Position numbers and translations under genes: made by a program
Assembly: GCA_963796455.1 (NCBI GenBank)
Contig: CAWCLO010000001.1
Coordinates: 1,120,001-1,184,000, forward strand
DNA: 64,000 bases
Direction of reading: 5' to 3'
Source of the DNA: Candidatus Sulfomarinibacteraceae bacterium
GTDB lineage: Bacteria; Acidobacteriota; Thermoanaerobaculia; Thermoanaerobaculales; Sulfomarinibacteraceae
Part shown: positions 12,966 through 59,682 of the stretch, one piece after another
How the letters are laid out: every line of letters starts with the position of its first letter
Position numbering within the stretch: position 1 is the first letter of the stretch
The notes under the pieces: model-generated
Seen by the model: only the letters and a program-made list of their open reading frames with translations
The model's database searches: none
What the model was told of the DNA's origin: nothing

Positions 12966-13796
12966 TTACCGCTTGTTCTTTGCGTGCGCTGAGGCGCTGC
13001 CTTTTTTTGCCTTCGGGTCCTTCGGCGTTGGCCGCCGGCGTCGGGGAGGCCTGGGACGGCCCGGTTTTGCAGACGAGCGCCTCAATTCCTCGATTTCTTT
13101 TGCGCTCAAGGTGCGGAACTCACCAGCCTTCAGCGATTTGTCCCGCAAAGGGCCGATCGCGGTCCGCCGCAATCGTTGCACGTGGTGACCGGCGTGAAAA
13201 AACAACTCGCGAACCTCGTGGGTACGGCCCTCGCTGACCTCGACCCGCCACCAACTGCTCGATCCACCACGCCTCTTGGATTCGCAGCGCGCCGACAATG
13301 GCTTGACCCGACACCCTTCGATGACGGTGCCGGCCATCAACTTTTTGTATTCGGAGTCGCTGAGATCGCCGCGGATCTTGACCAGGTACTCGCGCACGAT
13401 CCCATGCCGCGGGTGGGCGACTTTTGCCGCCAGATCCCCATCGTTGGTGAGTATGATCAGGCCCTCGGAGTGATAGTCGAGCCGGCCGACCGGATAGACC
13501 CGCTCTCGGATCACTGGTCTGACGATGTCGATCACCGTGCGGCGCTGTTCGGGGTCATCACAGGTGGTCATCACCTCGCGGGGTTTGTAGACGAGAAAGT
13601 ACCGCAACTGCTCGGGAGCCTTGATTGCCCTGCCGTCAACCTTGATGTGAACCTCGGTCAGTTCGACCTTTTCCCCGGTCACAGCGACCCGCCCATCGAC
13701 GGTCACCCTGCCATCGGCGATCATCCGGTCGGCGTCGCGACGAGAGCACAGACCGGAACGCGCAATGATTTTCTGTAATCGTTCTTCTGCCATCAT
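12966..13796 (-). CDS. rluB: RsuA/RluB-family pseudouridine synthase
   Basis: ERLQKIIA S4 domain, PVGRLD catalytic motif, EGRTHEVR. Confidence 0.88.
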   Translation of the reverse strand: MMAEERLQKIIARSGLCSRRDADRMIADGRVTVDGRVAVTGEKVELTEVHIKVDGRAIKAPEQLRYFLVYKPREVMTTCDDPEQRRTVIDIVRPVIRERVYPVGRLDYHSEGLIILTNDGDLAAKVAHPRHGIVREYLVKIRGDLSDSEYKKLMAGTVIEGCRVKPLSARCESKRRGGSSSWWRVEVSEGRTHEVRELFFHAGHHVQRLRRTAIGPLRDKSLKAGEFRTLSAKEIEELRRSSAKPGRPRPPRRRRPTPKDPKAKKGSASAHAKNKR

Positions 13797-13867
13797 TCCC
13801 TCACACTGGGATTCTCCACCTCGCGGCGGGGTTGGTGATTGTAGCGCGAAGTCGGCGGGAAGGCTAT

Positions 13868-13951
13868 GGGGCTTGGGGCTTGGGGCTTGGGGCTTGGGGC
13901 TTGGGGCTTGGGGCTTGGGGCTTGGGGCTTGGGGCTTGGGGCTTGGGGCTT
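13868..13951. repeat. Tandem heptamer array GGGGCTT x12
   Basis: 12 perfect units; degenerate inverted partner CAAGCCC CAGGTCC CGGGTCT CGAGCCT at 13981-14008. Confidence 0.97.
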
Positions 13952-14031
13952 CAATGGATCGATCGCGTATCTGAGCATGTCAAGCCCCAGGTCCCGGGTC
14001 TCGAGCCTCTTGGCGTGGAATCGACTATCCT

Positions 14032-17190: not shown

Positions 17191-17256
17191 GTCGACAATG
17201 ATGCCACAGGCGGCAGACTTTCTCCCCTTCCCCTGTCAGTCTCGGCGCCCGAGTTG

Positions 17257-17772
17257 CAGCGGCAGCGACAGTGTCCAGCGTCAGCGTCAGCGACAGCGGC
17301 AGCGGTCAGGAGTACAGGCGGCGAAGTGGCCACCACCGGGTCGTTCAAAAGAAGGGGTAGCCGGTGGGCGGCCGAGTCGGTAGAGACCGGTCGAATCACT
17401 GGAGAATCGCCTACGCCTCGGCGAAAGAGGTCGACAGCCACTTGCTACTCCTCGCCCACGCCGGAGCGATCAGCCCTAACGGAGCCAGTGAAGCGATGAA
17501 CGCCTTCGATCAAGTCCGTGCCATGACCTGGCGGCTGCTGAACCCGAAGAAGTGATTGCAGTCGCTGTCCCGGCCGCTGGTCGCTGCCGCTGACTCCTGT
17601 TCTCTGACGCTGTTCCCTGTCGCCGTCCCTGAACGATAGCCGACACCCTGTCTTGAACAAGAGTGATCCAGCATCTAGCATCCAGCATCGAGTATCGAAG
17701 GGCCGGACGGCTCTCCCTTTCCCCCCTTCTCCCTTTCTCCCTTTCCCTTTCCCCCCTGCCCTCTGCCCCCCT
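17257..17772. mobile_element. Composite STR-flanked cassette: (CAGCGD)n - conserved leader - four-helix-bundle remnant - (HCGCTG)n - TCTTG/CAAGA motif - (CCAGCAT)n - C/T-rich octamers
   Basis: Blocks shared with 36394-36623, 48742-49100, 59261-59680 and 34593-34817. Confidence 0.65.
17364..17555 (+). pseudogene. C-terminal fragment of a four-helix-bundle (23S rRNA IVP / TIGR02436-like) protein
   Basis: GRxGRDRxxHWRIAYASAKEVDSHL...FDQVRAMTWRL matches the family GR...IAxxSxxE pattern; N-terminal half absent. Confidence 0.7.
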
Positions 17773-25000: not shown

Positions 25001-25040
25001 AACCGTACCGGAAGCTCTGTACATGATAAGGAGCGGGTGT

Positions 25041-25160
25041 CCTCTGCTCCTCTGCTCCTCTGCTCCTCTGCTCCTCTGCTCCTCTGCTCCTCTGCTCCTC
25101 TGCTCCTCTGCTCCTCTGCTCCTCTGCTCCTCTGCTCCTCTGCTCCTCTGCTCCTCTGCT
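25041..25160. repeat. Tandem octamer array CCTCTGCT x15
   Basis: 15 perfect units; degenerate inverted arm GCAGAGGG at about 24676-24707. Confidence 0.97.
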
Positions 25161-25215
25161 CGACGAACCCATCTCGATCACGGTCTCTTCAAGGGAATTC
25201 CGCTATGCTTCGGGC

Positions 25216-30795: not shown

Positions 30796-30884
30796 GGTCG
30801 GTATTCTAGCTTGGATTCACCGGAAGTTGCCCGATTGACAACACGAGTCTTACGGGTCGGTCTTTGGTTTGTCCGAATCTCGGT

Positions 30885-31044
30885 TGGCCCGTGCCCGCGT
30901 CCGCGTCCGCGTCCGCGCCCGAATTGCAGCGGCAGCGGCACGATGCAGCGACAGATAGCAGCGTCCAGGAACGGCGAACAGGGGCGGTTATTCGGAGGCA
31001 GTTCGCTGTCGCAATCCGAGACTCTGTCCCGAACAAGAGTGAGC
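30885..31044. repeat. Collapsed STR cassette (CCGCGT, CAGCGD arms, CAAGAGTGA motif)
   Basis: GCGCCCGAATTGCAGCGGCAGCG matches 17245-17267; CTGTCCCGAACAAGAGTGAGC matches 17648-17668. Confidence 0.65.
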
Positions 31045-34592: not shown

Positions 34593-34817
34593 GGATGCAG
34601 GATGCAGGATGCAGGATGCAGGATCCTGGATCCTGGATGACTCTTGCCCAAGACAAGGTCATGGACAACGATCAGGGACAGCGACGGCGAACACTGATCG
34701 CTGTCCCTGTTCGCCGATTCCTGTCGCCGACGCTGCCACTGGACACTGCCCCTGCAGCCCGAGTTTCGGTCCGCACTGATCCAGCATCGACCATCGAGAA
34801 TCGAGTATCAAGCATCC
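34593..34817. repeat. Nested inverted STR cassette: (GGATGCA)4/(GGATCCT)2 ... CAGCGA/TCGCTG core ... (CCAGCAT-like)n
   Basis: Same outer arms and TCTTG-N2-CAAGA motif as 59261-59680, with the centre deleted. Confidence 0.78.
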
Positions 34818-36282: not shown

Positions 36283-36313
36283 ACCCCCACCCTCGTGGTG
36301 GGGGTTTGTTTTT
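36283..36313 (+). terminator. Rho-independent terminator
   Basis: ACCCCCACC-CTCGT-GGTGGGGGT followed by TTGTTTTT. Confidence 0.8.
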
Positions 36314-36393
36314 GGCATTTCCTGTTCGCGGTTGACCCGTACCCGTACCCGTTCCGGCTCCCGTGCCCAAATCGAAGCGACAACCACAGTATC

Positions 36394-36623
36394 CAGCGGC
36401 AGCGACAGGGCTCAGAGACAGCGATCAGCGACAGGAAACAGCGATCAGTGTTCAGCGGCAGCGGTCAGGGGCCGCGACGGCGTGGCCATCTCCGGGTTGT
36501 TCAACAGAAGGGAAAGCTTTTGTGGTGCAGGCGTCTCGCCTGCACACCGTGCGGCCGAGAAGGCCGCACCTCAATAGCCGCGGTCCCGAAGAAGTGCGCG
36601 CTGAACGCTGTCGCTGAACCCTG
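36394..36623. mobile_element. STR-flanked cassette with a REP doublet in place of the four-helix-bundle ORF
   Basis: (CAGCGD)n, leader TCAGG...GTGGCC...CCGGG..GTTCAACAGAAGG, REP 36521-36574, tail CCCGAAGAAGTG, (CGCTG)n. Confidence 0.7.
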
Positions 36624-36784
36624 TACGAGACGCTGCCTCGGCACGAGTGTTCGAGTTTTGACCTTGTGCGAAGGCCATTCGATAGCGCGAGCGAATCCGG
36701 CCCTGATGGGAATGGTCTCGGGAAAATCGGTTCATCTCCCACGAATTTGGTGCCCCCATCTCACGGCTGCGCCATAATTGCTCT

Positions 36785-47298: not shown

Positions 47299-48750
47299 GT
47301 GTCGGTGGAGCTCAAAGAGCTGCTCATGTTCATGACCAAAAAGGGTGCGTCTGACCTTCACATCAAACCGATGCGGCCGCCGCTGCTGAGGATTCAAGGT
47401 CGACTCATACCGATCAAGGCGGACCCGCTCAAACCGGACGAGGTCGAGGACATGCTCGGGAGTATCCTCAAACCCGCCCAGAAGGAGCGCTTTGCCACCA
47501 GCCAGGCCGTGGATATGGGTTACGGCGTTCCTGGAGTCGCACGCTTTCGCTGCAACATGTATATGCAGCGCGGAACCATGGCGGCGGTCTTTCGACGCGT
47601 GCCATTCGAAATCCAGAGCGCTGACAAGCTCAATCTCCCCGAGGTCATCAACTCCTTTACCGAATACCCCGGCGGTCTGGTGCTCATCACCGGCCCGACG
47701 GGCTCCGGAAAATCAACCTCGTTGGCAGCAATGATCAACCTCATCGCCAAGGCTCGCCAGTGCCATGTCGTGACCATTGAAGACCCGATCGAGTTTCTTT
47801 TTCAGGATGACAAGGCGACGATTTCGCAGCGCGAGGTGGGGACCGACACCCCAACCTTTCACGAGGCGCTCAGAAACTGCATGCGCCAGGACCCCGATGT
47901 CATCATGGTTGGTGAGATGCGCGATCCGGAGACCATGGCGACCGCGATCACCGCAGCGGAGACCGGCCATCTGGTCTTTTCCACCCTTCACACCAACAGT
48001 GCCGCCCAGACTGTCGACCGGATCATCGATTCGTACCCGGCCGACCAACAGACCCAGATCCGAGGCCAACTCGCCCTCGTCCTGAGGGCGATCGTTTCCA
48101 TGCAGTTGGTGGAGAACAAGGACGGGACCGAACGGCTGCCGGCCTGTGAGATCCTCATCAACTCACCAAAGATCTCGAAACACATCGAAAACGGAGAGAT
48201 CAAGGAAATTTTCGAGGAGATGGAAAACTCCGTCAATTTCTACCGCATGCAGAGCATGAACCAGTCGTTGATCGCACTCCTCGCCCACAGCCAGATCACC
48301 TACGAACAGGCGATCGACGCCTCGGCAGATCCCGATGACCTGTCGCTCAAGCTGAGGGAGATGTTTCCAAATATCGAGGAGCAATTCAGGGAGGGTGAGA
48401 TGTCCCCGTCACCAGCAGATTTTTCGCAGATCACCGAACTGCTTGAAACCAAGCAGATGTATGAAGAGACCGAAGAACGCCACCGCGTGAAAATGGGCGA
48501 GAAGGACGAACAGATCGAAACCCTCGAAAGTGATTTGGCGGCCTTGCGCGAGCAACTTCAGCAAACCGCCGAGAGCACCGACGGATTGCGGCGCGAGGCC
48601 GAGATCGCCCGTTCCGAAGTGCAGCGGGCACGGGAAGAATCGCAGCAGAAGATCAATGCCCTCAACGAGCGGATCCGCGAACTCAACCAGCAACTTCAGG
48701 GCGAAAATGGCGCCGGTGGTAAGGGTTCCTCGGGCTTCTTCAAGCGCTGA
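47299..48750 (+). CDS. pilT: PilT/PilU-family ATPase with C-terminal coiled-coil extension
   Basis: ASDLH, GPTGSGKST, TIEDPIE, RQDPDVIMVGEMRD, AETGHLVFSTLHT. Confidence 0.85.
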   Translation: MSVELKELLMFMTKKGASDLHIKPMRPPLLRIQGRLIPIKADPLKPDEVEDMLGSILKPAQKERFATSQAVDMGYGVPGVARFRCNMYMQRGTMAAVFRRVPFEIQSADKLNLPEVINSFTEYPGGLVLITGPTGSGKSTSLAAMINLIAKARQCHVVTIEDPIEFLFQDDKATISQREVGTDTPTFHEALRNCMRQDPDVIMVGEMRDPETMATAITAAETGHLVFSTLHTNSAAQTVDRIIDSYPADQQTQIRGQLALVLRAIVSMQLVENKDGTERLPACEILINSPKISKHIENGEIKEIFEEMENSVNFYRMQSMNQSLIALLAHSQITYEQAIDASADPDDLSLKLREMFPNIEEQFREGEMSPSPADFSQITELLETKQMYEETEERHRVKMGEKDEQIETLESDLAALREQLQQTAESTDGLRREAEIARSEVQRAREESQQKINALNERIRELNQQLQGENGAGGKGSSGFFKR

Positions 48751-48806
48751 ACGCATTCGATCAGGTCCGTGCCATGACATGGCGACTGTTAAACCCGACG
48801 AAGTGA
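48742..48806 (+). pseudogene. Second four-helix-bundle 3' remnant (ALNAFDQVRAMTWRLLNPTK*)
   Basis: Colinear with 17491-17555. Confidence 0.75.
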
Positions 48807-49100
48807 ATGCTGTTCGCTGTCGCTGCCCCGGCCGCTGGTCGTTGCCGCTGACTCCTGTTCGCCGACGCTGTCCCTCGCTGTCCCTGATCACCATCCGCGA
48901 AGCTGTTTTGGACAAGAGCGATCCAGCATCCAGTATCGAGTACAGGGTATCGAGCGACTATACGGTTCTCCCTTTCTCCTCCGCACCCGTGCCCCTCTGC
49001 CCCTCTGCCTTTTCCTCCAAGGTAACTTGCAGGAACGGGTTCGAGATCGGAGAGGTCGGTCTCCCTTTCTCCCCTTCTCCCTTTCCCCCTTTCTCCCTTA
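48807..49100. repeat. Right half of the STR cassette (HCGCTG, CAAGA motif, CCAGCAT, CCCCTCTG, CCCTTTCT)
   Basis: Colinear with 17556-17772. Confidence 0.85.
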
Positions 49101-59260: not shown

Positions 59261-59682
59261 GATGGCAGATACCAGATGCTGGATGCTGGATCACTCTTGT
59301 CCAAGACAGAATCTCGGAAAGCTTTCAGGGACAGCGACAGAGAACGGTAGACAGCGTCAGCGAACAGGAATCAGCGGCAGCGATCAGGAGTCCAGGCGAC
59401 GAAGTGGCCTCCTCCGGGTGGTTCAACAGAAGGAAAAGCCGTTGTGGTGTCGGCGTCTCGCCTGCACACCGTGCGGCCGAGACGGCCGCACCACAAAGGC
59501 CGGAGCCCGAAGAAGTGAATGCTGTTCGCTGTCCCGGCCGCTGATCGCTGTCGCTGATGACTGACCGCTGCCGCTGAATACTGTTCGCCGACCCTGTCCC
59601 TGCCGCTGTTCGCTGTCCCGGAACGCTGTCATCGCCAATAGTGATCCAGCATCTGGTATCTAGTATCCAGCATCGAGCATCA
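59261..59682. mobile_element. Most complete nested STR cassette: (GATGCTG)n - TCTTG/CAAGA - (CAGCGD)n - leader - REP doublet - tail - (HCGCTG)n - (CCAGCAT)n
   Basis: All blocks read directly and shared with the 17.3, 34.6, 36.4 and 48.8 kb copies. Confidence 0.75.

Follow-up and report, generated by a model that had tools for sequence, protein, structure and literature searches.

A probable IS4-ended cassette remnant with a repeat-armed four-helix-bundle gene as cargo in a Candidatus Sulfomarinibacteraceae genome

We describe a short locus in a window of 64,000 nucleotides (the whole stretch of DNA analysed here) from a Candidatus Sulfomarinibacteraceae genome, which is probably a doubly deleted copy of a cassette of about 850 bp with IS4-type ends; the cassette carries arm, leader and gene as cargo, and a DDE transposase of the IS4Sa-like kind, supplied in trans, is its likely means of movement. 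The gene belongs to the PF05635/TIGR02436 proteins, of which we know the solved fold and the likeness to Avd, a retroelement helper, and know of no function.

Results

Layout of the window locus

The features that survive at the locus are as follows.

17247..17256, + strand: trace of the left shell, the junction motif CCCGAGTTG; the ~120-nt end and its terminal inverted repeat are absent here
17257..17304, + strand: left arm, degenerate (CAGCGN)n
17305..17375, + strand: 5' half of the leader
17328-17347, + strand: 5' arm of the outer stem; its partner arm, with the RBS, is deleted
17369..17375, + strand: deletion junction with 7-bp microhomology CGGCCGA; 262 bp lost
17370..17555, + strand: C-terminal half of the four-helix-bundle gene, from about codon 57 of about 117, with no RBS and no native start
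17556..17632, + strand: right arm, degenerate (NCGCTG)n, the left arm inverted
17648..17665, - strand: terminal inverted repeat of the IS4-type shell, with 1 mismatch to the family motif
17666..17698, + strand: target, an ATCCAGC heptamer array; bases 1-9 of it agree with the target consensus AT-N5-AT

The inverted CAGCG arms that an earlier note had described around the ORF were confirmed, with seven CAGCG in the left arm (17257, 17263, 17276, 17282, 17288, 17294 and 17300) and five CGCTG in the right (within 17563-17612). The window has 5 clusters of this density (at least 5 CAGCG in 50 nt); 200 shuffles produced none. The two arms pair with each other in the predicted folds of the window copy and of one intact copy, for which the unshuffled sequences alone were folded. 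Just 5' of the left arm, intact copies read CCCGAATTG. The ORF of the window copy (17364-17555) encodes 63 aa, and membership of the intervening-sequence protein family, proposed in the earlier note from the motif pattern, held when this fragment was run against the profiles: it matched TIGR02436 at 24.2 bits (E 2.9e-5, cut-off 24) and, below the cut-off of 33.8, PF05635 at 23 bits (E 9.9e-5, profile positions 56-104 of 106). The same note had extended the unit to 17697; the element in fact stops at 17665 and the target array takes up the rest. The repeat at 17648-17665 is the counterpart of the transposase-upstream end in autonomous elements. It is the sole end at the locus, an unpaired right-type (short) end, and a target duplication is thus unassessable there. 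A glyoxalase-like gene lies on one side of the copy and cstA on the other.

The deletion and the leader

Intact copies carry 262 extra bases after the CGGCCGA at 17369-17375, comprising the rest of a long hairpin, a GGAGG and the ATG. Two CGGCCGA motifs, located at the inner stem's foot and at codons 56-58, bounded the bases missing here, and the GTG at 17364 is leader sequence that the deletion fused to codon 57. The intact leader forms a nested hairpin of about 150 nt with the RBS in its 3' arm (z -6.4, one congener copy folded with RNA parameters), and compensatory changes were found in 18 of 50 stem pairs across 13 leaders. The AGAAGG at 17350-17355, read in the earlier note as the Shine-Dalgarno sequence, is therefore not one, because the real RBS, the GGAGG of intact copies, lies within the stretch removed between the two motifs. 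Nor are the 50 nt described there the whole leader, half of the hairpin being deleted here. With one end lost and 262 bp gone, the window copy is dead, and neither mobility nor gene expression is to be expected from such a sequence.

The same CGGCCGA junction was present at 9 genome loci. The possibility that the deleted form is one amplified subfamily was not supported: placing the 10 deleted rows on a tree takes 10 label changes, and 0% of the bootstrap trees join them; this tree covers the 3' half, is weak and built from mosaic copies, has starred branches compatible with a single origin, and includes 2 of the 10 deleted rows cut out of register. Because of the weak tree and the mosaic copies, recurrent deletion and spread by conversion could not be told apart. 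In some congener copies (L003, L004, L006 and L287) a second, unrelated stretch of about 150 nt substitutes for the inner leader hairpin, with the outer stem ends retained.

Fold of the cargo protein

The intact cargo protein scored 55.3 bits against PF05635 (cut-off 33.8). Modelled from its single sequence, it is predicted to be a four-helix bundle, with a pLDDT of 87 for the best of five models and 44-54 for the others; we know of no catalytic role for this fold. Foldseek matched the model to 2GSC (Xcc0516; E 1e-5, TM 0.82), to BT_0352 (2RLD; TM 0.79-0.82) and to Avd (4DWL; TM 0.78, with 8% identity and E 0.098), so that the fold likeness to Avd suggested in the earlier note is borne out by the structure model. 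The PDB entries 2GSC and 2RLD contain five chains each, and Xcc0516 is described as a homopentamer ring (PMC4990558). The cargo protein would be expected, like Xcc0516 and Avd, to form a pentamer that binds nucleic acids.

Ends and target of the cassette family

The genome contained 70 PF05635 matches, of which 4 are other types and the remainder one close family. A leader-plus-gene query found 62 loci with at least 480 of its 517 bases covered, and among the 65 near-full copies 58 had an open ORF, 6 a frameshift and 1 a stop. An intact cassette measures about 850 bp, has a gene of about 117 codons downstream of GGAGG and encloses no transposase. Full-length copies carry the same leader and arms, as the earlier note had anticipated, and its picture of a multi-copy mobile unit lacking a transposase of its own was likewise upheld. 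Its composition of that unit, arm-leader-ORF-arm, had to be given up for the mobile unit here, which is bounded by IS4-type repeats with 9-bp duplications. These 18-bp terminal inverted repeats lie outside the arms, in an end of about 120 nt beginning CACTGCTGTCCAAAACAG and a short end terminating CTGTCTTGGACAAGAGTG, and this position of the repeats and duplications rules out the CAGCG arms as the ends of the element.

Both repeats had at most 3 mismatches in 71 of 89 paired ends. Across these 71 paired copies, the identity of the 9-bp flanks was 0.778 compared with 0.512 under shuffled pairing, and 21 flanks were perfect versus 2.4; the identity peaked at 9 only, with no peak at lengths 3-8 or 10-14. 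Since most copies lie within heptamer arrays, the test was redone on the 20 of 71 with non-periodic flanks, in which 6.45 of 9 bases matched versus 2.81, a value reached by 0 of 5000 shuffles. These flanks rule out a 2-bp duplication in a period-7 array posing as 9 bp. Fewer than 8 of the 9 duplication bases matched in 33 of the 71 copies. A GATGCWG-type heptamer, a pattern picked post hoc from the flanks, adjoined 139 of 213 ends versus 0.17% of random places.

No empty site at base resolution was found; one congener keeps the flanking gene pair without the gene, with an unalignable spacer. The contigs from four public sequencing runs gave no joint cleanly excising a copy, and an intact copy had no gathering-level match in Rfam. 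A literature search, which left most subscription papers outside its reach, turned up no publication describing four-helix-bundle genes that are repeat-armed or carried by an IS.

Partner transposase of the IS4 family

The earlier note saw no recognisable transposase, and indeed none lies inside the unit; a recognisable family nevertheless exists, because the mobile unit is bounded by IS4-type repeats with 9-bp duplications, and these ends point to IS4 (NF033592, L257). In a metagenome scan, which covered 119 of 120 loci and omitted a single one labelled as gut, 12 loci had both ends about 1.36-1.53 kb apart, enclosing an ORF of 386-410 aa, and the two of these ORFs that were profiled matched NF033592 at 264 and 241 bits (cut-off 115). 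A congener element (L257) of 1411 bp holds a single ORF of 402 aa with PF01609, PF14294 (DUF4372) and a Y-2-R-3-E-6-K motif; its ends agree with those of the cassette at 18 of 18 and 14 of 18 positions, and heptamer arrays flank it. The IS4Sa subgroup is described as having CA------T ends, 8-10 bp repeats and a size of 1150-1750 bp (PMC2266710). The CA------T ends, size and duplication length of the partner element fit this subgroup, to which it is assigned from these features alone.

A cognate transposase was found neither in this 90.5%-complete assembly nor in the two shell-richest congeners, and tblastn was blank. PF14294 occurred in 1 of 31 genomes, NF033592 in 1 of 5, and the partner transposase in 1 of 30 relatives; it was found neither among the 112 genome-collection loci listed nor in five pattern-bearing genomes, plasmids or viral contigs, the metagenome scan being the only one of these scans to yield it. 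The sole PF01609 gene of the genome (C7:291074-292135) was rejected as the partner, its 18-bp perfect ends being unlike those of the cassette. A perfect 9-bp duplication was seen in only 1 of 13 transposase-bearing elements (L142), and collapsed repeat assembly may explain this scarcity at autonomous copies.

Shells without the gene and genes without the shell

Of 30 relatives, 3 had the long shell end and 15 the gene. Near-identical gene-bearing copies occur in one congener; in a second, the shells are 311 bp long and contain a REP-like palindrome but neither gene nor arms. In the genome collection, 311-bp shells without gene or CAGCG occurred at 5 loci, 4 of them with perfect 9-bp repeats; at least 8 of 9 duplication bases matched in 12 of 14 further gene-less shells and in 6 of 10 gene-bearing loci. 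This genome itself holds 72 gene-less copies that keep the 5' leader arm and have a REP-like pair where the gene would be.

At 20 gene loci from nine other congeners, leader and arms were retained and IS4 ends were found at none. In three congeners (L259-L266, L275, L286-L305) the core sits in a second shell, whose ends GG(C/T)TCATCCGGAATT lie inside AACGTT heptamer arrays; these ends numbered 6, 16 and 28 in the three genomes versus 0 in this genome, and 12 closed gene-bearing elements of this kind measured 800-940 bp. The flanks of the second shell suggest a 2-bp CG duplication or none. Its transposase was not found, the sole match in 301 genomes being inside an ordinary gene. Among 52 copies, 3 had the core in reverse orientation with respect to the shell.

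The earlier note had offered the gene as cargo or driver of the repeat system. Because gene-less and arm-less shells exist and the core also sits in a second, unrelated shell, the gene is cargo rather than engine: the first alternative stands for the jumping step, in which these ends move even when gene and arms are missing, and the role of driver of jumping does not. Gene-less copies multiply too, and the protein is therefore dispensable in cis for jumping.

The same IS4-type end was also found on short elements from several other phyla. Such elements (L024, L032, L040, L082, L093; L023, L055, L095; Thermodesulfovibrionales, Poribacteria) hold other repeat units, and the IS group seems linked to simple repeats across phyla because the Thermodesulfovibrionales and Poribacteria elements enclose repeat arrays. 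In line with the link between protein type and repeat unit raised in the earlier note, all four other PF05635 genes (C4:1278094, C1:983149, C9:2726 and C10:733004) have inverted arms of a different unit each, namely GCAGAGGA, GGCTAT-type, AGGAATT and ATCGCT. These units also build many gene-less arrays in the window.

Selection and mosaicism

Among 59 indel-free copies, dN was 0.049 and dS 0.348 (dN/dS 0.14). Non-synonymous and synonymous variants stood at 59:136 among those shared between copies and at 71:37 among those in a single copy (Fisher p 4e-9), with a neutral expectation of 2.5-3.1 to 1. The gene and its leader are under purifying selection across copies. Third positions had a diversity of 0.215 and the shell end one of 0.18, compared with 0.063 at first positions, 0.041 at second positions and 0.069 in the leader. 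Because the shell end, unlike the other three classes, matches third positions in diversity, the gene was probably inside the shell when selection acted on it.

The copies are mosaic, linkage r2 falling from 0.134 (up to 10 bases) to about 0.025 (beyond 80) while four-gamete pairs rose from 54% to 77%. Deleted copies had 1.67 private non-synonymous changes per copy versus 0.58, and their ratio to synonymous changes was not significantly different (p 0.26). The puzzle is that the cargo is conserved though 72 gene-less copies spread too. A purely passive passenger would be expected to drift, which the shared variants do not. The explanation that we tentatively prefer is weak cell-level selection on a shared subunit pool, in which missense subunits may be harmful and nulls harmless.

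Other copies and repeats in the window and the genome

That the window holds several decayed copies, as stated in the earlier note, was confirmed at five further places.

30850..31041, + strand: shell and arm remnants, core gone
34639..34780, + strand: short shell remnant with both arm types, within a GATGCAG / ATCCAGC array
36300..36650, + strand: second gene-less REP-core copy with decayed ends
48742..48920, + strand: 3' remnant, comprising the final codons, the right arm and the terminal repeat, with the heptamer array after it
59292..59643, + strand: gene-less copy in which a REP-like palindrome pair replaces the gene, flanked by two right-type ends

Further repeats were observed. A REP-like palindrome GATGTCATCCTGAGCG joined to long TCCTCTGC arrays occurs genome-wide (C1:931688-932224, C4:234653-235486, C3:260050-260665; window 25040-25161). 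Two gene copies of 97% identity with short inverted ends lie at C4:1143372-1144476 and C4:1146349-1147449; we take them to be REP-associated tyrosine-transposase-like, and the pair is a candidate source of the REP cargo. A multi-copy, apparently gene-less element of 500-900 bp with nested palindromes and repeat arms of 8-10 bases is found at C1:2036-2763, C1:620254-621141, C4:791263-792256 and about 20 more places. An element of 1.8 kb has three copies (C6:37094-38933, C7:279899-281563 and C7:285081-286913), whose frame, by its motifs, presumably resembles an IS91-type rolling-circle transposase. The cassette copies at C3:12441 and C4:339030 are interrupted by a second IS with ends TGTTACCCATGTC, which we assume to be IS481-like. 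At 13793-13978 of the window, a GGCTTGG x12.7 array forms a (PKPQAPS)n pseudo-ORF between two genes.

Discussion

In the scenario that we favour, an IS4 element would have dropped its transposase and acquired a pre-existing repeat-armed four-helix-bundle core. A cognate transposase, since lost or unassembled, may then have amplified the cassette into intergenic simple-repeat arrays. Recombination between copies would shuffle alleles, flip the core between its inverted arms and, probably aided by the leader hairpin, delete 262 bp at the 7-bp microhomology.

A rather unlikely alternative is that the core itself is selfish and encodes a protein that drives its spread, perhaps by attaching to the arms or the fold-back leader and so helping the core to recombine into repeat arrays, with the IS shells only later vehicles; this is compatible with a shell derived from IS4. 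It would account for the same core in two unrelated shells and at loci with no recognised shell, for the inverted repeat arms around each of the four other PF05635 types and for the preserved leader stem, with its compensatory changes in 18 of 50 pairs over 13 sequences, and selection on shared but hardly on single-copy variants would be that of a gene mattering to spreading lineages. It has to contend with IS-like ends in all high-copy cases examined, with the 72 copies that multiplied without the gene, with the lack of any shown insertion bounded by arms alone, and with a fold that matches Xcc0516, BT_0352 and Avd and, to our knowledge, has no catalytic role. The opposite possibility, to which we also give a low probability, is that the gene is a neutral passenger whose low dN/dS was inherited from old functional alleles mixed in by recombination before or after capture. 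Heavy mosaicism and private changes that are nearly neutral speak for it, as do the many deleted forms and the 7 broken copies among the 65 near-full ones, whereas the shell-end diversity of 0.18, near the third-position value of 0.215, suggests divergence inside the shell while non-synonymous sites stayed low.

We think it doubtful that the leader hairpin is a fold-back promoter on single-stranded DNA, by which the gene would be expressed only on single-strand entry, resident copies would be silent and selection would act at transfer. Promoters of this kind are known, as in Frpo of the F plasmid (PMC9849209). On the bottom strand, 12 of 13 leaders (L268 read by eye) have TTGACA-like + 16-17 nt + TA in their 5' arm, the TA recurs in 59 of the 61 genome copies with the site read, a stable fold-back stem is predicted with RNA parameters, fold-back would put the gene downstream on the template, and single-copy variants are near-neutral; however, just 1 of the 13 leaders has the final T that a canonical -10 box would end in, viral contigs hold no relative of the cargo protein, and the same stem as RNA buries the RBS (z -6.4), which accounts for the pairing equally well. 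Combining these ideas is a long shot: repeat-armed four-helix-bundle genes would form a class of selfish cassettes that have repeatedly joined unrelated IS ends and insert into simple-repeat arrays built by their kin. A fold-back promoter would activate them only in DNA arriving as a single strand, and there an Avd-like pentamer would aid establishment or recombination. If true, this would explain the selection on spreading lineages, the silent resident copies and rRNA intervening sequences as one landing site. Membership of a DGR or of a 23S rRNA intervening sequence, which the family name and the fold could suggest, is extremely improbable. The locus is neither, because the assembly has 0 matches to the reverse transcriptase profile PF00078 and its sole 23S gene (C10:140644-143654) contains none of the listed copies, the locus lying instead between the glyoxalase-like gene and cstA.

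The IS4-ended cassette remains our preferred reading. It places a PF05635/TIGR02436 gene of about 65 copies in a setting with defined ends, a target, a transposase family, natural null, deleted and gene-less controls, and purifying selection, and makes the role of the protein for its carrier DNA testable in the laboratory. An IS4-type element homing to short tandem repeats also helps to explain the nested repeat piles of the genome.

Comparison with known systems

The cargo protein has its four-helix bundle in common with Xcc0516, BT_0352 and Avd, but it is only 8% identical to Avd, and this assembly has no reverse transcriptase. The gene-in-stem layout recalls the 23S intervening sequences with an S23p ORF in Coxiella and Leptospira (PMC4990558). 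Unlike these, the cassette is intergenic and outside rRNA, and has repeat-built arms, an extra leader hairpin of 150 nt and IS ends.

IS4Sa-like elements with a DUF4372 transposase (NF033592) have CA------T ends, a 9-bp duplication and near-identical terminal repeats as in the cassette, which differs in having no transposase gene. The closest counterpart in layout is MIC231, with IS231/IS4 ends, which likewise combines IS ends, a target duplication and a passenger gene with no internal transposase, and the MIC/MITE class also includes gene-less miniature forms and expected activation in trans (PMC3129680, PMC2266710). In contrast to MIC231, the present cassette has IS4Sa-like ends, about 65 copies of a repeat-armed four-helix-bundle gene, a strong preference for heptamer arrays and recombining mosaics; for the IS4Sa subgroup, a 2008 survey reports no modular forms (PMC2266710). 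The cassette has the MIC/MITE features that were tested, namely shared IS ends, a fixed 9-bp duplication and no internal transposase, except that no cognate transposase was found in the same 90.5%-complete assembly. The copy in the window is no more than a dead remnant, and the arrangement from which it descends is a variant of the mobile insertion cassette kind.
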